64,000 nucleotides of DNA from Escherichia coli (GCF_024298765.1 NZ_CP101210.1); one strand, 5' to 3'; positions 5,004-58,240 are shown, counted from the first letter of the stretch. Translations and numbers: made by a program. Notes: generated from the sequence alone by a model not told the origin.

Positions 5004-5258
5004 ATGGAAAAAAATAATGAAGTCATTCAGACTCATCCGCTCGTAGGGTGGGACATCAGCACCGTTGATAGCTATGATGCGCTGATGTTGCGTTTGCACT
5101 ACCAGACCCCAAATAAGTCCGAGCAGGAAGGGACTGAAGTTGGTCAGACGCTCTGGTTAACCACTGATGTTGCCAGACAATTTATTTCGATATTAGAAGC
5201 AGGAATCGCCAAAATTGAATCCGGTGATTTCCCGGTAAACGAGTATCGGCGTCATTAA
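5004..5258 (+). CDS. bssS: Biofilm regulator BssS (84 aa)
   Basis: ORF 5001..5258. MEKNNEVIQTHPLVGWDISTVDSYDALMLRLHYQ is recognised as BssS. Confidence 0.9.
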   Translation: MEKNNEVIQTHPLVGWDISTVDSYDALMLRLHYQTPNKSEQEGTEVGQTLWLTTDVARQFISILEAGIAKIESGDFPVNEYRRH

Positions 5259-10468: not shown

Positions 10469-10650
10469 ATGTCACCCTGTGAAAATGACACCCCTATAAA
10501 CTGGAAACGAAACCTGATCGTCGCCTGGCTAGGCTGTTTTCTTACCGGTGCCGCCTTCAGCCTGGTAATGCCCTTCTTACCCCTCTACGTTGAGCAGCTT
10601 GGCGTTACCGGCCACTCCGCCCTGAATATGTGGTCCGGTATTGTCTTCAG
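10469..10650 (+). pseudogene. mdtG: mdtG 5' fragment (codons 1 to about 61) cut by an insertion
   Basis: [62 protein letters not shown] is the MdtG N-terminus. The frame then reads MGP* in foreign sequence, with the stop at 10664-10666. Confidence 0.93.
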
Positions 10651-10672
10651 TATAATGGGTCCCTAAACACAT
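10628..10672. other. attL junction of the mdtG-borne element
   Basis: The sequence reads host ...ggtattgtcttc, then AG, then element tataatgggtccctaaacac. The arm TCCCTAAACAC (10660-10670) is the inverted partner of GTGTATTTAGGGA at 14933-14945. Confidence 0.75.
10651..10656 (+). promoter_or_regulatory. Consensus -10 hexamer TATAAT at the extreme left end of the element, upstream of the recombinase gene
   Basis: TATAAT lies 34 nt upstream of the ATG at 10690. No good -35 is visible in either the integrated or the reconstructed circular context. Confidence 0.3.
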
Positions 10673-10689
10673 CATTTTAGGTATTGAAT

Positions 10690-12219
10690 ATGAGACGGGC
10701 AATCAGCTACATCAGATTTTCAAGTGAACGACAACTAAAAGGGGACTCTGTACGCAGACAATCTAAGCTGGTCACTGACTGGCTTGATAAGAACCCTGAG
10801 TTTTACTTGGATTCATCCTTGAGCTTTAAAGATTTGGGGAAAAGTGCTTTTAGTGGTAAGCACTTGAAAGGTGGCTTAGGTGACTTTTTAACCGCTATCG
10901 AGAAAGGGCTTGTTAAAGCTGGTGATACACTACTAATCGAGAGTTTAGACCGTCTCTCACGTCAGGATATTGATATTGCTTCTGAGCTATTACGTCGTAT
11001 CTTAAGGGCTGGTGTAGATATAGTCACACTGAGCGATGGTGAACATTACACACGAGAAAGTTTAAAAGACCCGTTATCCCTGATTAAAAGCATTCTGATA
11101 ATGCAGCGGGCGCATGAGGAAAGTCTGAGGAAGTCTGAGCGTGTCCAAGCTGCATGGAACCGTAAAAAAGAACTCATCTCCGAAGGTATCAAGGTATCTA
11201 GGCGTTGTCCTGCATGGTTAAGGCTGAATGATGACCGTCGAACATTCACTATCATCCCCGATAAAGTGGAAGTTGTTAAACGAGCATTTGACCTGAGATT
11301 ACAGGGTTTAAGCTTTTGGGCTATCACCAGAACTTTAAACGATGAAGGCCACTTGTCATTGAATCAATACACACCTAAACAAAAGGGATGGTCTGATACT
11401 GCTGTAAAGAAACTACTCAGAAATCGTGCTGTGATTGGATGTTTCACACCTGCTGGACGTGAAGAAGTTCAGGGTTACTACCCCGCAATAATCAGTGAGT
11501 CACTATTCTATCGAGTACAGCAACTGAACACAGGGCAATATGGTAGGGCTTCTGTATCAAGTAATCCGCTATCAGTCAACTTGTTCAGGGGTATCATCAA
11601 ATGTTCTGAGTGTGGGGCTACTATTGTTCTTGGTGGATATGCCTTAAAACGTTTTGGGATGTACAGATGCCCTAATCGTTCAGCTAACAGGTGTAGTGCA
11701 AAGGCTATCAGTCGTAAGCAAACGGATACAACTATCCTTTACATGCTCGCATTATGCGACCGTTTTGAAACTGAAAATACTGACACTATTGATAGCCTTA
11801 AATTACAGCGTGAAGATTTGCAGCGTAAAATCTCAAAAATGGCAGAACTCGCTATTGAACTCGATGACATGACAATTATCACAGAGAAATTACGTGATAT
11901 GAAGAATGCGCTATCAAAACTCAATCATGATATCGAAGAGGAAACAAAGCGGATAAAGGCCATCACAACTGGAAGCCTCAAAGATATTGACAGGACAACA
12001 AAGGAAGGGATGATAGAGACACAGCTACTTATCAAGGGCGTACTCAAAGAAATAGTTATAGATGCCGCTAAACGTCGCTGTAAAGTGACTTTTCACAACG
12101 GTAAGGTAATTGACCTACCTATAACAGAAAACCCCTCAGAGGACGTTACAGAGGCCATACAGTCGCTTTCTGAAGTCACTGAGAGGGGTTTAATAGATGT
12201 TGATGTAGTAGCGATTTAG
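10690..12219 (+). CDS. Large serine recombinase (integrase), 509 aa from the ATG
   Basis: ORF track 10684..12219. The N-terminal catalytic domain has AISYIRFSSERQ and ESLDRLSRQ motifs. It is followed by a recombinase domain, a Cys4 zinc ribbon (CSECG...CPNRSANRC) and a long coiled coil (LKLQREDLQRKISKMAELAIELDD...). Confidence 0.9.
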   Translation: MRRAISYIRFSSERQLKGDSVRRQSKLVTDWLDKNPEFYLDSSLSFKDLGKSAFSGKHLKGGLGDFLTAIEKGLVKAGDTLLIESLDRLSRQDIDIASELLRRILRAGVDIVTLSDGEHYTRESLKDPLSLIKSILIMQRAHEESLRKSERVQAAWNRKKELISEGIKVSRRCPAWLRLNDDRRTFTIIPDKVEVVKRAFDLRLQGLSFWAITRTLNDEGHLSLNQYTPKQKGWSDTAVKKLLRNRAVIGCFTPAGREEVQGYYPAIISESLFYRVQQLNTGQYGRASVSSNPLSVNLFRGIIKCSECGATIVLGGYALKRFGMYRCPNRSANRCSAKAISRKQTDTTILYMLALCDRFETENTDTIDSLKLQREDLQRKISKMAELAIELDDMTIITEKLRDMKNALSKLNHDIEEETKRIKAITTGSLKDIDRTTKEGMIETQLLIKGVLKEIVIDAAKRRCKVTFHNGKVIDLPITENPSEDVTEAIQSLSEVTERGLIDVDVVAI

Positions 12220-12263
12220 TATCTCTTATTAGGATTCACTGAGTACTTTTTAAGCTTTGAAGC

Positions 12264-12307
12264 TACCCGACCAGCGTTACTGTTAGCATTGGTGAGGTTG
12301 GTTTTTT
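12264..12307 (+). terminator. Candidate intrinsic terminator after the large recombinase gene
   Basis: The imperfect stem ACCCGACCA...TGGTGAGGT (alternatively CCGACC/GGTTGG with a G-U pair) is followed by TTTTTT. Confidence 0.45.
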
Positions 12308-12482
12308 CAGCTTCTTCACAAAAAAGCTTCAGAGGTCTTCTTAACCATCCGCTAAGCAGGAGAGAGGGTGGTACATGAGAAAGAACCCTCACTTCTAAAA
12401 AGATTTTTTAGCTATTTTGCTTAAAACCATATCAAAAGATACATTTTATTGATTCAGGTCAAAGACAAAAGCATTGACAAAA

Positions 12483-12580
12483 TGGTAAAATTGTTCACAT
12501 GACCTTACTTAACAGACTTTTTAAGAGCTTTTGAGAAGCTTGTTGAACAGACACTCTTTCTGGAGTGTTGTCTTTTACTT
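12483..12580 (+). ncRNA. Hypothetical sRNA-like transcription unit of about 80 nt (promoter to terminator)
   Basis: An extended -10 TGGTAAAAT (12483-12491) is followed by the terminator-like hairpin ACAgACACTC tttctg GAGTGTTGT and CTTTTACTT (12547-12580). This is a prediction from sequence only. Confidence 0.2.
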
Positions 12581-12934
12581 AAGAGGTTTGTTTAGATAAC
12601 TCTCAAGGCATCTCTTAAGAATCACTGTTAAGGTGATACTCTCCCTTCGGGTTATATCGTATCTCTTCTCCCGTTAGACAGTTTTTCCTAGCAACTTCAT
12701 AGTTATCTGTCAAGTGCCTTTGAAGATTCCATCAAGACCTCTGAATCTGACCTGATATAGATGCTGTGAAGGCATATTCTCTAGGTCTGTGTAGCTTACT
12801 TAGTGGGAAGAGAGGGATATAGTGACCATAGGGGAACCCCTCCTGTTAAAAAGACTACTTAGAAGTCTGAGACTTTAGTAAAATCTGTGAATATAGCTTC
12901 TCAGACGCTCTGTAACGCATTCTAAGCGATTTTA

Positions 12935-12953
12935 CCACCTTATTTTAAGGTGG
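12935..12953. other. Perfect 7-bp hairpin CCACCTT-atttt-AAGGTGG
   Basis: Read directly from the sequence. It is immediately followed by the second copy of GGGTGGTACAT (12952-12962). Confidence 0.6.
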
Positions 12954-13206
12954 GTGGTACATCCCTATAGGTTACCCTAAAAATGGGGTTAAAACTCGCT
13001 ACAGAGCTTTCTATGAGGCTTGGTAGAGTTGCATAAATTTTACACAACACTTATTCAGCTTCTAAATTTTTTTATAAAAAATCGTAGTAACCCCTCTACA
13101 TTCCCCTTCACCGATAATCTTCAAAAATATCTATCACAGGTCTATACCTGCTAAGTACCCGTCACTACGCCTAAGTGGTCCCCTTTGCAAAATTTTAAAA
13201 TATCTA

Positions 13207-13233
13207 TTGACTTTTTATGTGAACTGTTATAAA
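13207..13233 (+). promoter_or_regulatory. Candidate sigma-70 promoter reading toward the small recombinase
   Basis: TTGACT (13207-13212), a 15-nt spacer, and the extended -10 TGtTATAAA (13225-13233). Confidence 0.4.
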
Positions 13234-13303
13234 GACCGCTCCATCTCTTAGGCATACCGTTATAGCATACTAAAAAGGTATAGCTAACCCCCTGTAAAAA
13301 CCA

Positions 13304-13345
13304 TACCGATTAGCCTTGTAAAACACTTTATCGGTACATTATACT
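13304..13345 (+). promoter_or_regulatory. Inverted repeat overlapping the proximal promoter of the small recombinase (res-like or operator candidate)
   Basis: TACCGAT (13304-13310) and ATCGGTA (13330-13336) are separated by 19 nt. They overlap TTGTAA (13316-13321), an 18-nt spacer and TATACT (13340-13345). A related ATACC-N18-GGTAT lies at 13254-13281. Confidence 0.4.
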
Positions 13346-13380
13346 CAACTCATCAAATGAGTAAGGCAAATGAGTATATT

Positions 13381-13926
13381 ATGGCTAACATTGGTTATAT
13401 CCGAGTTTCATCAATCCAGCAGATTACAGACCGTCAACTTGAAGGGGTCGTACTGGATAAGATATTTACTGATAAAGCATCTGGGAAGAATACAGACCGT
13501 CCACAACTAAAGGCTATGCTCGATTATGTTCGTGAAGGTGATGTTATCCATGTACACGACTTGTCACGTTTAGGGCGCTCTACCGTGGATGTATTAACGC
13601 TGGTGGATAAACTTTCACAGAAAGGTATCAAGGTTCACTTTCACAAAGAAGGTCTGATAACTGGTGACGATAACCCCACGTCTAAGATGATTCTCACAAT
13701 CTTTTCAGCAGTGGCTGAAGCTGAACGTAAAATGATGCTTGAGCGTCAACGAGAAGGCTATGAAGCTGCTAAAGCTGCTGGTCGTGTAGTTGGAAGGGGT
13801 AACGGTAAAGCGGTTGACAGAGAAGGTATTAAAGCTGCTCTTGCTGCTGGTGGTTCAATCGCTAAAGTAGCCGCTCAATTCAACGTTGCCAAGTCAACTG
13901 TACAGCGTATTAAAGCTGAAGATTAA
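13381..13926 (+). CDS. Small serine recombinase of the resolvase/invertase family (181 aa; alternative start at 13357 gives 189 aa)
   Basis: MANIGYIRVSSIQQ carries the catalytic Ser. The protein also has DLSRLGRS and AERKMMLERQREG motifs and a C-terminal HTH (SIAKVAAQFNVAKSTVQRI). The layout matches gamma-delta/Tn3 resolvase and Hin/Gin. Confidence 0.9.
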   Translation: MANIGYIRVSSIQQITDRQLEGVVLDKIFTDKASGKNTDRPQLKAMLDYVREGDVIHVHDLSRLGRSTVDVLTLVDKLSQKGIKVHFHKEGLITGDDNPTSKMILTIFSAVAEAERKMMLERQREGYEAAKAAGRVVGRGNGKAVDREGIKAALAAGGSIAKVAAQFNVAKSTVQRIKAED

Positions 13927-13939
13927 GTCAGGAAATACA

Positions 13940-14623
13940 TTAGATTTTTCTTCCAAATAAACTTGGGAGATTCTTACGGTTTCTTGCTTGCATCATTATT
14001 TCTGGGCTAACAAGTTTTTTTAATTCGCTTCTGTACTCATCAATAGAACACTCATCCGCAACAAGTTTTGAAATCAGGTCTTCAATAGACATAACATCTT
14101 GTTGCAGGAAATCAAGTTCACGAGACAAGTGCTTTTTTTGATTCTCTAACTTTCCTATCTCAGCATTTAAGTTATCTACATCTGTCGCCAATTTCTCTGC
14201 CTGAGATTTCAAATTACTTGTATCTTCTTTTTCTCTTTCGATAAGGTTTTTTTGTTTCTCAATCTTCAACTTTGACGTCAGTCTAGCTGACTCTTCAAGA
14301 TTTTCAGCTTCTACTTTTTGTCTTGCTCGCCATGCGGTTGCCTTGATTTGAAGTAGTGTTACAAGGTTGCTGAAGTAAGGGAAAAAGGTCGCCAAAATGA
14401 ACCCTAGCCCTACGGGATAGCATAATGTTTTTAGATAGAAGTCTTCCGTCGATGTGATTTGTTGAATACGAGTAACAACCGAAGCCTCACTAAGACACAT
14501 GATAGCAATGCTTTTCCAGTTAAATCCCACCCATGACAAAATGATGTAGCCCCATAAAGGGTTAGCTACTCGTTCCTTCAACGCCTGCTTAACTGATTCC
14601 GTGATACTTTCTTCACTACTCAC
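13940..14623 (-). CDS. Hypothetical protein with two TM segments and a coiled coil (227 aa)
   Basis: The GTG start is preceded by GGAG 8 nt upstream. Hydrophobic segments are PLWGYIILSWVGFNWKSIAIMCL and LCYPVGLGFILATFFPYFSNLVTLL. A charged heptad-like region of about 110 aa follows (EAENLEESARLTSKLKIEKQKNLIEREKED...). I do not recognise the family. Confidence 0.7.
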   Translation of the reverse strand: MSSEESITESVKQALKERVANPLWGYIILSWVGFNWKSIAIMCLSEASVVTRIQQITSTEDFYLKTLCYPVGLGFILATFFPYFSNLVTLLQIKATAWRARQKVEAENLEESARLTSKLKIEKQKNLIEREKEDTSNLKSQAEKLATDVDNLNAEIGKLENQKKHLSRELDFLQQDVMSIEDLISKLVADECSIDEYRSELKKLVSPEIMMQARNRKNLPSLFGRKI

Positions 14624-14893
14624 AATTACTGCTCCATAGAAAACTCTGGTTTGAGAAATTTTAATGCGAATCCAATCAGTTAGATAGACCTGTAAATAGC
14701 AATTTTATAGAAGTCGAGAGAGGGATGACTAACACCCTGCATAGTTTCCTGAAAAGAGACTTCGCATATTATCTATATATTTCAATAAGTTATGCTAAAA
14801 AGGAACTATACCAATACTGCATAGATTCTGCGTAAAACTGCTTGGATACTTGGAAATCCACCATTAAATTGCATAGTCATTCACCTGATAAAG

Positions 14894-14908
14894 CCTGTTA
14901 TTAACAGG
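14894..14908. other. Perfect 15-bp palindrome CCTGTTATTAACAGG near the right end of the element
   Basis: Read directly from the sequence. It is nested within TCACCTG (14881-14887) and CAGGTGA (14905-14911). Confidence 0.6.
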
Positions 14909-14932
14909 TGATAGGATTCGGATGTTCTCATA

Positions 14933-14980
14933 GTGTATTTAGGGAATTAATATCAGCATTACATTTTTATTTTCGGCCAT
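14933..14980. other. attR junction of the mdtG-borne element
   Basis: The sequence reads element GTGTATTTAGGGAATTAATATC, then AG, then host cattacatttttattttcggcc, which resumes MdtG as (S)[15 protein letters not shown]. Confidence 0.75.
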
Positions 14981-16001
14981 CGCCTCACCGTTTTGGGGTG
15001 GACTCGCCGACCGTAAAGGCCGAAAACTCATGCTATTACGCTCTGCCCTCGGCATGGGCATCGTGATGGTGTTGATGGGACTGGCACAAAATATCTGGCA
15101 GTTTTTGATCCTGCGGGCGCTTCTTGGGTTACTTGGCGGATTTGTCCCCAACGCTAATGCTCTTATCGCCACACAAGTACCGCGTAATAAAAGCGGCTGG
15201 GCGCTGGGTACGCTCTCCACAGGCGGCGTTAGTGGTGCGTTGCTCGGCCCAATGGCTGGCGGCCTGCTCGCCGATAGCTACGGCTTACGTCCGGTATTCT
15301 TTATTACCGCCAGTGTGCTCATACTCTGCTTTTTCGTCACCCTGTTCTGCATCAGAGAAAAATTCCAGCCGGTCAGCAAAAAAGAGATGCTGCACATGCG
15401 GGAAGTGGTGACATCACTTAAAAACCCGAAACTGGTACTCAGCCTGTTTGTCACCACGTTAATCATCCAGGTGGCGACAGGCTCAATTGCCCCCATTCTG
15501 ACGCTGTATGTCCGCGAACTGGCGGGTAACGTCAGTAACGTCGCCTTTATCAGTGGCATGATCGCCTCGGTGCCAGGCGTGGCGGCTCTGCTAAGCGCAC
15601 CACGACTCGGCAAACTTGGCGATCGAATCGGACCCGAAAAGATCCTGATTACAGCGCTGATCTTTTCTGTACTGCTGTTGATCCCAATGTCTTACGTTCA
15701 GACGCCATTGCAACTTGGGATTTTACGTTTTTTGCTCGGTGCCGCCGATGGTGCACTACTCCCCGCCGTACAGACACTGTTGGTTTACAACTCGAGCAAC
15801 CAGATCGCCGGGCGTATCTTCAGCTATAACCAATCGTTTCGTGATATTGGCAACGTTACCGGACCATTGATGGGAGCAGCGATTTCAGCGAACTACGGTT
15901 TCAGAGCGGTATTTCTCGTCACCGCTGGCGTCGTGTTATTCAACGCAGTCTATTCATGGAACAGTCTACGTCGTCGTCGAATACCCCAGGTATCGAACTG
16001 A
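14957..16001 (+). pseudogene. mdtG: mdtG 3' fragment (codon 61 to the stop)
   Basis: The frame reads [38 protein letters not shown]... and runs to the stop at 16001. ORF-track entry 15030..16001 is its internal-Met portion. Confidence 0.93.
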
Positions 16002-26316: not shown

Positions 26317-27069
26317 GTTGTCACCCTGGACCTGGTCGTACATTTAAGAAATTAAATCATTTCAACTTGGTTGTTAACGCAACCTGTATTTTGTTAACGC
26401 TGCGTTACGATGGAAAGTATGTCTGCGGAAATATTTTTAATAACTCACCCGCGCGTTGTATTTTTCTTTTTTTGTTCATACCAAAGTATTAAAACTCACG
26501 TAAATACGCTGTTATCTACGCAAAAAATATTTTGTTTTCTTTTAAATCTCCGTTTTCCGCTATCAAAAATCACCAGACAATCATTCTTCTTGCCCGTCGC
26601 TGATTGCTGCGATATGTCTTGCGCACAAGCCGTGACAAACCTCGTCTTTTTGCAGTAAAAAATTGTCCACGGAGGTGTGGAGAAAAAACAAGAACGTTTT
26701 ACATGACGAAAGGACTACACCGAAATATTTTTTATATGCATTATTAGTAAGTTAGCACCATTTGTATGATTTTTTAAAATTGTGCAATAAAAACCAAATG
26801 TACAACTTTTCTATCATTTCTAAACTTAATAAAACCTTAAGATTAACATTTTAATATAACGAGTTACATTTAGTTACATGTTTAACACTTGATTTAAGAT
26901 TTGTAATGGCTAGATTGAAATCAGATGTAATCCATTAGTTTTATATTTTACCCATTTAGGGCTGATTTATTACTACACACAGCAGTGCAACATCTGTCAG
27001 TACTTCTGGTGCTTCTATTTTAGAGGCAGCTGTCAGGTGTGCGATCAATAAAAAAAGCGGGGTTTCATC
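26317..27069. promoter_or_regulatory. Divergent csgBAC/csgDEFG control region (753 bp, AT-rich)
   Basis: This long AT-rich intergenic region lies between csgB and csgD. From the literature it holds the csgD and csgB promoters and many regulator sites. I did not map individual sites. Confidence 0.8.
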
Positions 27070-35713: not shown

Positions 35714-36637
35714 TTAACTGTATGCATGTAGCGTACGTTGGCAAAGTGCCGAACGTACGCAATCCTCTTTACCGAATCGGACGATCCCGACCATTTCATC
35801 TTCTTCGAAACGTTCCAGCGCGTCACTTAATCCGGAGCGCACGCCGCGAGGCAAATCGCATTGCGTGATATCACCGTTGACGATAACCGTCACGTTCTCC
35901 CCGAGGCGGGTTAAAAACATTTTCATTTGCGCGGCAGTCACATTCTGCGCCTCGTCAAGAATGACGACTGCATTTTCAAAGGTACGTCCACGCATATAGG
36001 CGAACGGCGCAATTTCCACCTTCCCTATTTCCGGTCGCAGGCAGTACTGCATAAAGGAAGCCCCTAAGCGCCGAACCAGCACGTCGTAGACCGGGCGAAA
36101 ATAGGGAGCAAACTTTTCTGCGATATCACCAGGTAAGAAGCCAAGATCTTCATCGGCTTGCAGAACTGGACGGGTGACGATAATCCTGTCGACATCCTTA
36201 TGTATCAGGGCCTCTGCCGCTTTTGCTGCGCTGATCCAGGTTTTTCCGCACCCGGCTTCGCCCGTGGCGAATATCAGCTGCTTACTCTCAATAGCCTTCA
36301 GATAGTGCAATTGCGCTTCATTTCGCGCGAGGATGGGCGAGGTATCGCGACTATCGCGGGCCATACCAATGGCTTCTACGCCGCTCATTTGCACAAGCGA
36401 GGTGACCGATTCTTCTTCACGCTGCTTATGGCTGCGCGAATCCCGTCTCAGCACACGTTTTGCCTCGCGACGAGCTTTGATCACTGCTTTTTGTCTTCCC
36501 ATGGAGAGCACCTTGAGTTGTTTGTATTCATCACACGCGCCGTTGGCAGCGCGATTATGCGCACGAACATCAGAGGGTTGGCTTCCTTGTAAGCCATAGT
36601 TTGCTTTTGGATAAAATGCCGAAAAACGGCTACGCAC
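35714..36637 (-). CDS. phoH: PhoH, phosphate-starvation-inducible ATPase
   Basis: ORF 35714..36637 starts at GTG. An ATG at 36502 (MGRQKAVIKARREAKR...) would give 262 aa. The protein has a Walker A motif GEAGCGKT. The start is uncertain. Confidence 0.9.
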   Translation of the reverse strand: MRSRFSAFYPKANYGLQGSQPSDVRAHNRAANGACDEYKQLKVLSMGRQKAVIKARREAKRVLRRDSRSHKQREEESVTSLVQMSGVEAIGMARDSRDTSPILARNEAQLHYLKAIESKQLIFATGEAGCGKTWISAAKAAEALIHKDVDRIIVTRPVLQADEDLGFLPGDIAEKFAPYFRPVYDVLVRRLGASFMQYCLRPEIGKVEIAPFAYMRGRTFENAVVILDEAQNVTAAQMKMFLTRLGENVTVIVNGDITQCDLPRGVRSGLSDALERFEEDEMVGIVRFGKEDCVRSALCQRTLHAYS

Positions 36638-57894: not shown

Positions 57895-58240
57895 GCCTGA
57901 TGCGACGCTTAACGCGTCTTATCAGGCCCACAAAAAGCACTGTTCCCGTAGGCCGGATAAGGCGTTCATGCCGCATCCGGCAACTGCGCCATAATGCCTG
58001 ATGCGACGCTTAACGCATCTTATCAGGCCCACAAAAAGCACTGTTCCCGTAGGCCGGATAAGGCGTTCTCGCCGCATCCGGCAACTGCGCCATAATGCCT
58101 GATGCGACGCTTAACGCATCTTATCAGGCCCACAAAAAGCACTGTTCCCGTAGGCCGGATAAGGCGTTCTCGCCGCATCCGGCAACTGCGCACTAATGCC
58201 TGATGCGACGCCTGCCGCGTCTTATCAGGCCTACAAACGG
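57895..58240. repeat. BIME array: about 3.4 tandem copies of a 101-bp unit built from REP palindromes
   Basis: GCCTGATGCGACGCTTAACGC(G/A)TCTTATCAGGCC...GTAGGCCGGATAAGGCGTT...GCCGCATCCGGCA starts at 57895, 57996, 58097 and 58198. Confidence 0.9.

Follow-up and report, generated by a model that had tools for sequence, protein, structure and literature searches.

The locus considered here, a 4.3-kb insert in the mdtG gene of Escherichia coli, raises the question of why a large serine recombinase (LSR, 509 aa) and a small serine recombinase (SR, 181 aa) of a different class occur together in one short element with no recognizable directionality factor. The insert lies in a chromosomal stretch of 64,000 nucleotides (NZ_CP101210.1), which is referred to as the window. 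Large serine integrases catalyze recombination between attP and attB; recombination between attL and attR requires a recombination directionality factor (RDF), and for serine integrases such factors are diverse and difficult to recognize. The original prediction had left open whether the SR or the 227-aa product of a third gene supplies directionality, whether the SR resolves multimers or inverts a segment of the core between the recombinase genes, which is free of open reading frames (ORFs), and whether the element is excision-defective. On balance, and with some reserve, we favor the reading that the insert is a gutted satellite-like element, originally of ~11 kb, with the LSR as its integrase, and that the SR is an interchangeable resolvase with candidate sites of its own and not a partner of the LSR in setting the direction of excision. 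The pairing of the two recombinases would then be ordinary, an integrase next to an independent resolvase module in a gutted island, which mostly resolves the initial puzzle and moves the RDF question to the parent family.

The insertion in mdtG and its integrase

The host region is an E. coli chromosome segment with yceJ, yceI, trhO, lpxL, mdtG, msyB and opgH, in which the multidrug transporter gene mdtG is cut in two by an insert of 4306 bp (10651-14956; Table 1). The predicted 4.3-kb element is thus a precisely bounded unit, and its removal in silico restored the empty mdtG site of strain 181.1 at 5195 of 5195 bases (100%, no gaps). Integration occurred at the short shared core TCAG with a target duplication of zero, and in the attP as reconstructed, this core is flanked by the inverted arms TTTAGGGA...TCCCTAAA. 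Since the event was conservative, took place at a short core and left no target duplication, the insertion can be attributed to a serine integrase. The GC content of the element is 39.8%, as compared to 49-53% in its flanks.

The LSR, the SR and the 227-aa gene were all found where they had been predicted, and the domains of the two recombinases were confirmed by Pfam and PDB searches. The LSR matches the Pfam families Resolvase (PF00239, E 2.9e-16, residues 4-160), Recombinase (PF07508, E 9.9e-18) and Zn_ribbon_recom (PF13408, E 8.7e-07). Its catalytic motif is YIRFSS, and Y7, R9 and S11 as well as the four cysteines of the zinc ribbon (C305, C308, C327 and C335) are invariant in an alignment of five LSRs of the family described below. 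Residues 244-460 resemble the C-terminal domain of the A118 integrase, including its coiled coil, in a weak PDB match (E 3e-4), and a coiled coil is accordingly predicted for the LSR from this alignment. Like the integrases of A118, Bxb1, phiC31 and TP901-1, the LSR has the order catalytic domain, recombinase domain, zinc ribbon and coiled coil, simple att sites with imperfect dyad symmetry, and conservative integration without target duplication. Unlike them, it is only very weakly similar to the solved phage-type integrases (E 3e-4), and the LSRs of the family share a C-terminal tail of ~80 aa. Since the LSR adjoins its own attachment site and the insertion is precise at TCAG without target duplication, these comparisons show it to be the integrase of the element.

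The C-terminal tail (residues ~430-509, window 11977-12219) is kept across five LSR types, and the types that bear it are otherwise ~37% identical to the LSR of the window in that alignment. Speculatively, the tail could be a shared docking or interaction surface. It had also been predicted that the element contains no further ORF of at least 60 aa. This holds outside the LSR gene, while three ORFs of 61-93 aa are present in other frames within it.

The 60 best-matching genomes are 99.9-100% identical to the 25-kb right flank of the window. Of the eight records with the element, only two are among them, and the non-carrier 181.1, which was checked, has an intact mdtG gene. The existence of carriers and non-carriers with 100% identical flanks indicates that a recent precise gain or precise loss of the 4.3-kb insert has happened; homologous replacement is a possible alternative source of the difference.

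The parent family and the deletion

In strain A1, the same mdtG site is occupied by an element of 11.6 kb. It is headed by an LSR 99% identical to that of the window and encodes, in addition to a 'baseplate' protein by annotation, a tape-measure protein, several small proteins, a methyltransferase and a small recombinase other than that of the window. The same gene order was also found at yegR/yegS, ymdF, dinB/lafU, yecE and tonB/yciI. It begins with the LSR, a Dit-like baseplate gene, the tape-measure gene and genes for 69-, 235- and 109-aa proteins, an HNH protein and 71-, 92- and 184-aa proteins, and continues with a gene-free noncoding stretch of ~1.4 kb and a slot for variable cargo, up to a right end that is again conserved. 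The baseplate, tape-measure and HNH genes and the genes for small proteins form a leftward operon. Over all these sites the LSRs fall into five types, which are 27-67% identical to each other. Alignment with the full-size relatives identifies the 4.3-kb insert as an internally deleted member of this ~11-kb LSR-integrated family.

Of the baseplate gene, only the final 100 bp are left at the deletion junction, which is marked by a 10-bp microhomology, TTCAGCTTCT. Missing at this point are ~7 kb, from the baseplate gene through the gene for the 184-aa protein together with the left part of the noncoding region. Because of the microhomology at the junction, and from the block map against the full-size relatives, we attribute the loss to illegitimate recombination. 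The deletion therefore explains why the core is free of ORFs and why the insert has no further genes. The largest ORF of the core has only 58 aa (12216-12392, minus strand) and overlaps the baseplate remnant. An origin of the deletion through the activity of the SR was considered and rejected; the microhomology is unrelated to the half-sites of the SR described below.

The uninterrupted 4.3-kb form is present in 6 of 5426 complete E. coli genomes, where each copy occupies a single place and is collinear with the window, and two further records, both of one strain, contain a copy interrupted by an insertion sequence (IS). Both recombinase ORFs are intact in all 4.3-kb copies, which are 99.6-100% identical at the nucleotide level. 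An independent short derivative was observed at dinB/lafU (L029 4419-7539, and L030; relatives are designated by L numbers). It consists of an LSR, a 320-aa homologue of the 227-aa protein, an SR of a second type and two more genes, and remnants that keep the LSR, cargo and an SR have therefore arisen more than once. Since ~7 kb of the element have been lost, a defect in excision, which was among the options originally proposed, is plausible. With its tail genes and, probably, its replication functions gone, the remnant can most likely still integrate, but would neither excise autonomously nor be transmitted.

Searches of the full-size elements with Pfam and PHROGs recognized only the Dit-like tail protein, the tape-measure protein and the HNH endonuclease, and no capsid, terminase or recognizable replication initiator was found in the 11-kb members. 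This result, together with IS insertions in some copies, would fit a family of decayed prophage remnants, or a defense island acting through tail interference, in which case the insert would be dead and its recombinases would have survived by chance. Interference with tail assembly by defense genes on mobile elements has reportedly been described. We nevertheless regard this explanation as quite improbable: the same 11-kb order is found at five or more sites with five LSR types, which argues for repeated mobility at that size, and neither the intact recombinase ORFs of the 4.3-kb copies nor the independent derivative at dinB/lafU is expected from it.

In a scan of GTDB genomes, which reaches close relatives only, matches to the family were confined to Escherichia (E. 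sp. and E. albertii). No description of the family was found in the open-access literature; the nearest is that of a different family (Barth et al., 2023).

The small serine recombinase, its candidate sites and its neighbors

If the SR were the RDF of the LSR, the two would be expected to travel together. The small recombinases form three types, which are 30-42% identical to each other (~35%): SR1 in the window, L003, L004 and L005; SR2 in L001, L024 and L029; and SR3 in L002, L010, L011 and L013. Four of 13 elements examined are without an SR (L008, L009, L012 and L014). All SRs occupy the same slot, but the gene is on the plus strand in the case of SR1 and SR2 and on the minus strand in that of SR3. 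The LSR types with which the SR types are freely combined are 27-40% identical. Each SR type was found with three LSR types, SR1 with those of mdtG, dinB/lafU and yegS, and conversely the mdtG-type LSR was found with SR1, SR2 and SR3. At tonB/yciI, L009 lacks an SR while L010 carries SR3, with LSRs that are 93% identical. Full-length SR1 is present in 28 genomes, as compared to 538 for the noncoding region of the family. These comparisons show that the SR constitutes a module of its own within the cargo slot and can be exchanged.

As an RDF should track its integrase and the SR does not, it is very unlikely that the SR is the directionality factor of the LSR. The proposal that either the SR or the 227-aa protein has this role draws on the fact that theirs are the only other intact genes of the remnant, and on the difficulty of recognizing RDFs at all. 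It is barely credible in view of the free shuffling of SR and LSR types and of the elements that have no SR. The 227-aa protein, with its hydrophobic N-terminal segments and swapped C-terminal half, occurs with all three SR types, in the SR-less L008 and L014, and not in L004 and L005, a pattern unlike that of an RDF. The corresponding suggestion of the original prediction is thus not supported for either protein.

The SR of the window matches Resolvase PF00239 (E 2.8e-37), and its match to the helix-turn-helix (HTH) family HTH_7 falls just under the cut-off (22.1 versus 23.8 bits). Its alignment with Tn3/gamma-delta resolvase covers the whole length of the protein and thus also the C-terminal HTH (E 4.5e-31). 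Studies of Tn3 resolvase identified Y6, R8, S10, D36, R68 and R71 as most critical and D67 as non-essential (PMC2794168). SR1 keeps all six critical residues (as Y6, R8, S10, D31, R63 and R66) and has equivalents of Q14, Q19 and R45; the sole change is D67 to S. SR1 is like Tn3/gamma-delta resolvase in its length, domain order and key catalytic residues, with ~40% identity by eye, and like this enzyme and the resolvases of small plasmids in having putative dyad binding sites directly upstream of its gene that overlap the promoter region. It is unlike Tn3/gamma-delta in having two clear dyads with the half-site ATACCGWT instead of TGTCYNNTA, and in residing in a chromosomally integrated element.

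A dyad scan located such sites within 110-140 bp upstream of each SR gene, with a half-site specific to the SR type that forms 2-3 dyads for each. For SR1, these are two clear dyads, ATACCGTT-12 nt-AAAGGTAT (dyad A) and ATACCGAT-19 nt-ATCGGTAC (dyad B), and a third inverted repeat of different sequence. The SR2 half-site TGTCTATA occurs in 5-6 copies, among them one 34-bp dyad, and the SR3 half-site GTCTCATA/TGAGAC likewise in 5-6 copies. The gapped SR1 dyad pattern has a single match in the 64 kb and none in 100 shuffles. The putative SR1 sites are laid out like res beside a resolvase gene and overlap a promoter-like site (13207-13233). Motif and gapped-pattern searches revealed no second SR1 site cluster in the element, and a repeat scan revealed no convincing inverted repeat pair. 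With only one site cluster, SR1 would have nothing to invert or delete in an integrated single copy.

These results bear on the idea that the SR is a DNA invertase, which would serve as a phase switch by inverting a promoter or some of the ORF-free core. The Hin, Gin, Cin and Pin invertases are small SRs of similar size, the PDB match to Gin is substantial (E 1.4e-23), and SR genes are found in either orientation when different elements are compared. The resolvases are, however, the better match to SR1 (4.5e-31 versus 1.4e-23), and the SRs on the opposite strand are of a different type and not inverted copies of the same one. In addition to the single site cluster and the lack of a suitable inverted repeat pair, collinearity with the window was seen in all six uninterrupted copies, and in L003-L005 over the shared SR1 region. 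An invertase function is thus very improbable, and the suggested inversion of a core segment is not supported.

The closest relatives of SR1 (55-66% identity) are encoded on plasmids of ~2.0 and 5.5 kb and on Salmonella contigs of ~4.5 kb; further relatives belong to islands with a tyrosine integrase or to other small elements with an LSR. On three E. coli/Salmonella plasmids, NZ_CP116175.1 (1985 bp), NZ_AP027492.1 (1952 bp) and NZ_CP130129.1 (2000 bp), a relative with 59% identity is annotated under the match. A relative with 76% identity lies at one end of another small element in the metagenome contigs L035 and L036 (~7 kb), with an LSR at the other end, and the pairing of an LSR with a small SR therefore recurs outside the 11-kb family. 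The resolution of multimers, one of the roles first considered, is the option best supported by the resolvase-like sequence, the type-specific upstream dyads and the relatives on plasmids of 2-6 kb, and a module for multimer resolution and autoregulation is our best reading of SR1. In the manner of plasmid and transposon resolvases, the SR would bind the res-like dyads directly upstream of the SR gene, resolve multimers of an excised, replicating form of the element, and repress the promoter from which it is itself expressed. In the integrated element, which offers no second site, it would cause neither inversion nor deletion, and since host systems or other modules can take its place, it may be dispensable.

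The cargo slot next to the SR contains proteins of 227, 241, 277, 283 and 320 aa that belong to one family, 221- and 178-aa proteins, or methyltransferases. In the 227-aa family the N-terminal ~100 aa are nearly invariant, while the C-terminal halves are swapped. Small SR genes have been described as markers for neighboring anti-phage genes, which they were suggested to mobilize, their function being unknown (2026 PLoS Biology, PMC13552941). The SR could accordingly be a recombinase of defense cargo that moves or maintains the adjacent slot gene, here the gene for the 227-aa protein as a candidate anti-phage or exclusion factor. This would agree with the position of the SR in a variable slot next to diverse cargo, with the convergent arrangement of SR and 227-aa-type genes at gaps of 3-13 nt in several elements, and with the SR1 cassette being 94-96% identical between elements where the DNA around it is only 75-90% identical. 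The pair is not fixed, however, as the 227-aa family occurs with any SR type or none and L004 and L005 have SR1 and no such cargo gene. Furthermore, the cargo is not flanked by a repeated SR site, the window having a single dyad cluster, and PADLOC gave only weak coiled-coil matches (to LmuB/JetC) for the 227-aa protein and no match for the LSR or SR. The arrangement resembles the defense-linked small SRs designated RADS (PMC13552941) in that a small SR lies beside variable accessory genes in a mobile element; it differs in that the neighbors of SR1-type genes are not recognized as defense genes by PADLOC and the SR is not tied to any one neighbor. We therefore consider a role in moving cargo unlikely.

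Several points speak against an independent resolvase in a gutted satellite-like element. Canonical res sites of the Tn3 type have three subsites, and only two clear dyads were detected upstream of SR1. Family members without an SR imply that its function is dispensable or replaceable, and an element packaged from concatemers would have little need of a resolvase. Given the identical 25-kb flanks, the remnant could perhaps still excise precisely without any element-encoded factor. Finally, gene similarity is all that connects the family to a helper phage (see below), and every step of the argument is based on sequence.

The noncoding region, the proposed link to phages and the possible source of directionality

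Both recombinase genes are on the plus strand and, in agreement with the predicted distance of ~1.14 kb, are separated by 1137-1161 nt. Comparison with the relatives indicates that this gap is a conserved noncoding region and not an invertible segment. In the family the region is ~1.4 kb long (L004 11540-12650 in its counterpart), is present in 538 of 5426 complete E. coli genomes with 82-92% conservation, and often has no annotated feature under the match. The right part of it, which is retained in the window, includes a promoter-like site that is nearly invariant in the family and a candidate RNA domain with three nested helices. In this domain, 97.2% of cells are paired, as compared to 41-53% with slid partners, and changes on both sides were seen in 8 pairs, as compared to 0-3 in the slid controls. 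The covariation score was reached by none of 500 shuffles, and recurrent G-U pairs in the helices are valid on the plus strand only. The 11 sequences of this set form two or three haplotype groups and hence represent few independent events. Taken together, the covariation supports an RNA structure, and the domain is probably structured. Rfam searches at gathering scores (window and L004) and at E<=5 (L004 9200-14150) gave no match in the insert or its relatives.

A second conserved element, of ~150 nt, is present twice per full-size element, upstream of the gene for the 109-aa protein (as an inverted copy at L004 9611-9756) and upstream of the cargo slot, in the same sense relative to these two divergent transcription units. 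It might be a shared regulated promoter or leader. Its RNAalifold consensus is weak with little covariation, and we make no claim of an RNA motif for it. The noncoding region also contains many complementary words of the TTAAG type, tandem 82-bp repeats and 13-nt repeats CCTTCTTAACCGA in 1-4 copies. In L008 (12428-12952) and L009 (12507-13031) a gene for a 174-aa 'AP2/ERF family transcription factor' is inserted in it, and in other family members a gene for an N6-adenine methyltransferase.

Two genes of the full-size elements, the Dit-like gene over its length and the tape-measure gene in part, show 89-96% nucleotide identity to adjacent genes of virulent Felixounavirus phages of E. coli, and 218 phage records, mostly of Escherichia and Salmonella phages, match this DNA. 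The Felixounavirus-like genes lie at 4803-6767 in L004 and at equivalent positions throughout L001-L010. In the elements, a copy of a 73-bp repeat stands before each of the two tail genes (L004 5412-5484 and 7676-7747), whereas the genes abut in the one phage genome examined. No match was obtained for window 12200-14960 in a 'distant' blastn search of 50,697 phage records, or for the 235-aa protein of the family in a tblastn search against phages. A scan of IMG/VR with the latter returned only contigs that, judged from their numeric ids and sizes, resemble isolate genomes and is thus uninformative on packaging. With an integrase, att sites and no structural genes other than the Dit-like and tape-measure genes, the ~11-kb elements have too few such genes to form virions.

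By analogy, this suggests that the ~11-kb family is a satellite family similar to the PLE (phage-inducible chromosomal island-like element) of Vibrio cholerae, in which the PexA protein of the helper supplies directionality. Like PLE and its helper phage ICP1, the family consists of small integrative elements with an LSR, a putative link to a virulent myovirus and apparent sequence exchange with the phage, and neither system has a recognizable element-encoded RDF. Unlike PLE, the family is found in Escherichia and has tape-measure and baseplate genes, a noncoding region of ~1.4 kb and often a small serine resolvase. It is likened to PLE by layout and not by sequence, and its dependence on a helper is putative.

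No gene that co-varies with the LSR type, and hence no co-evolving RDF candidate, was found in the family. Beside each LSR the att arm is the only type-specific sequence, and elements with LSRs of three different types share at least one small operon protein, WP_001337947.1, without any sequence difference. As nothing in the family co-varies with the LSR type, we infer that directionality probably comes in trans. Its most plausible source would be a helper phage, by analogy to PLE/ICP1, with the Felix O1-like phages as the candidate; alternatively, directionality may be absent, having been lost or never encoded in the element.

Putative satellites of the phi92-like Justusliebigvirus members Inny, Muut and Mt1B1_P17 have been reported from E. 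coli (Barth et al., 2023; PMC10448857). They resemble the present family as predicted E. coli satellites with tape-measure and baseplate-hub genes that lack most tail genes, a subset of them with a serine recombinase. They differ in encoding RepA_N as well as major capsid and decoration proteins, and in their integrases, which are mostly tyrosine integrases beside tRNA genes. Their candidate helpers are Stephanstirmvirinae, whereas the tail genes of the present family match Felixounavirus. None of six accession numbers of the present family occurs in the supplementary files of that study (PMC10448857).

More specifically, we tentatively put forward that the ~11-kb elements are undescribed Escherichia satellites of virulent Felix O1-like phages, in which the helper would set the directionality of the LSR, the ~1.4-kb region would act as a P4-like RNA device for immunity or timing, and the resolvase modules would be accompanied by membrane cargo directed against competitors. 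This is a possible scenario, short of a probable one. The 4.3-kb remnant would then keep the LSR, the 3' RNA domain, the res site with its resolvase and one cargo gene, and may still be precisely gained and lost. The parent family, which is common (~10% of complete E. coli genomes), apparently undescribed and linked to Felix O1 by its tail genes, is in any case a more interesting object than the insert. Felix O1-like phages are strictly virulent and are used in typing, biocontrol and therapy. If the elements are satellites, they would likely influence the efficacy of these phages, and they would offer a tractable E. coli counterpart of Vibrio PLE/ICP1, a test bed for helper-supplied directionality of serine integrases, and five natural LSR/att pairs with different chromosomal targets as possible tools for genome engineering.

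Table 1. Positions of the mdtG fragments and of the features of the insert, counted from the first nucleotide of the window.
Feature	Position	Strand	Basis
mdtG 5' fragment	10469..10650	+	ORF list, alignment to K-12 mdtG
attL crossover, TCAG common to attB and attP	10647..10650		K-12 attB/attL/attR alignment, empty-site reconstruction
P' arm of the element	10651-10690		Directly after the attL crossover
LSR (integrase), 509 aa, intact	10690..12219	+	Pfam PF00239, PF07508, PF13408; A118 integrase match; identities
3' remnant of the deleted Dit-like baseplate gene (last 100 bp)	12216..12315	-	94% identical to baseplate 3' end, L004 4548-4647
Deletion junction, 10-bp microhomology	12306..12315		Three-way alignment (window, L004 baseplate end, L004 noncoding region), BLAST block map
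Retained right part of the noncoding region	12394..13030	+	75-90% identity to L002/L004/L005
Promoter-like site, AAGACA-18 nt-TGgTAAAAT, extended -10	12462..12491	+	Sequence and multiple alignment; inference
Candidate structured RNA domain, three nested helices and UUCG-type hairpin (12635-12663)	12508..12663	+	RNAalifold, pair counts
Conserved ~150-nt element; second copy (same sense, ~70% identity) in the leftward operon, upstream of the 109-aa gene	12863..13025	+	BLAST, alignment and fold
Conserved block ending in a promoter-like site (TTGACT 13207-13212, TATAAA 13228-13233) facing the variable slot	13049..13235	+	Alignment of 12 elements, motif positions
Putative res-like site of SR1	13252..13339		Dyad scan, motif and gapped-pattern searches
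Dyad A of the putative SR1 site	13254-13281		Dyad scan
Dyad B of the putative SR1 site	13303-13337		Dyad scan
SR1, resolvase-like, 181 aa (189 aa from ATG at 13357)	13381..13926	+	Pfam, PDB matches, catalytic residues
227-aa slot-cargo protein, hydrophobic N-terminal segments and charged, coiled-coil-like C-terminal half	13940..14623	-	Hydropathy, PHROG families of unknown function, homologues
Conserved right-end region, common to elements with different LSRs: TTTCAATAAGTT, three TGCATAG, terminal dyad CACCTG...CAGGTG	14679..14909		BLAST, alignment of 8 right ends
attR, P arm specific to the LSR type, ending in crossover TCAG 14953-14956	14910..14956		att and right-end alignments
mdtG 3' fragment	14957..16001	+	ORF list, K-12 alignment, empty-site reconstruction

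The conserved right-end region is a candidate for an origin, a pac site or the region of the integrase promoter. Its TGCATAG motifs are ~50-80 bp apart, the terminal dyad lies just before the type-specific att arm, and TTTCAATAAGTT also occurs within the 82-bp tandem repeats of the full-size elements. Elsewhere in the window, and unrelated to the insert, are three tandem matches to naRNA4 (CssrE) at 57951-58231, a strong match to the antisense RNA Ysr251 at 35719-35912 (192.8 bits), and a patch of 32% GC at ~26.5-27 kb (26500-27000).

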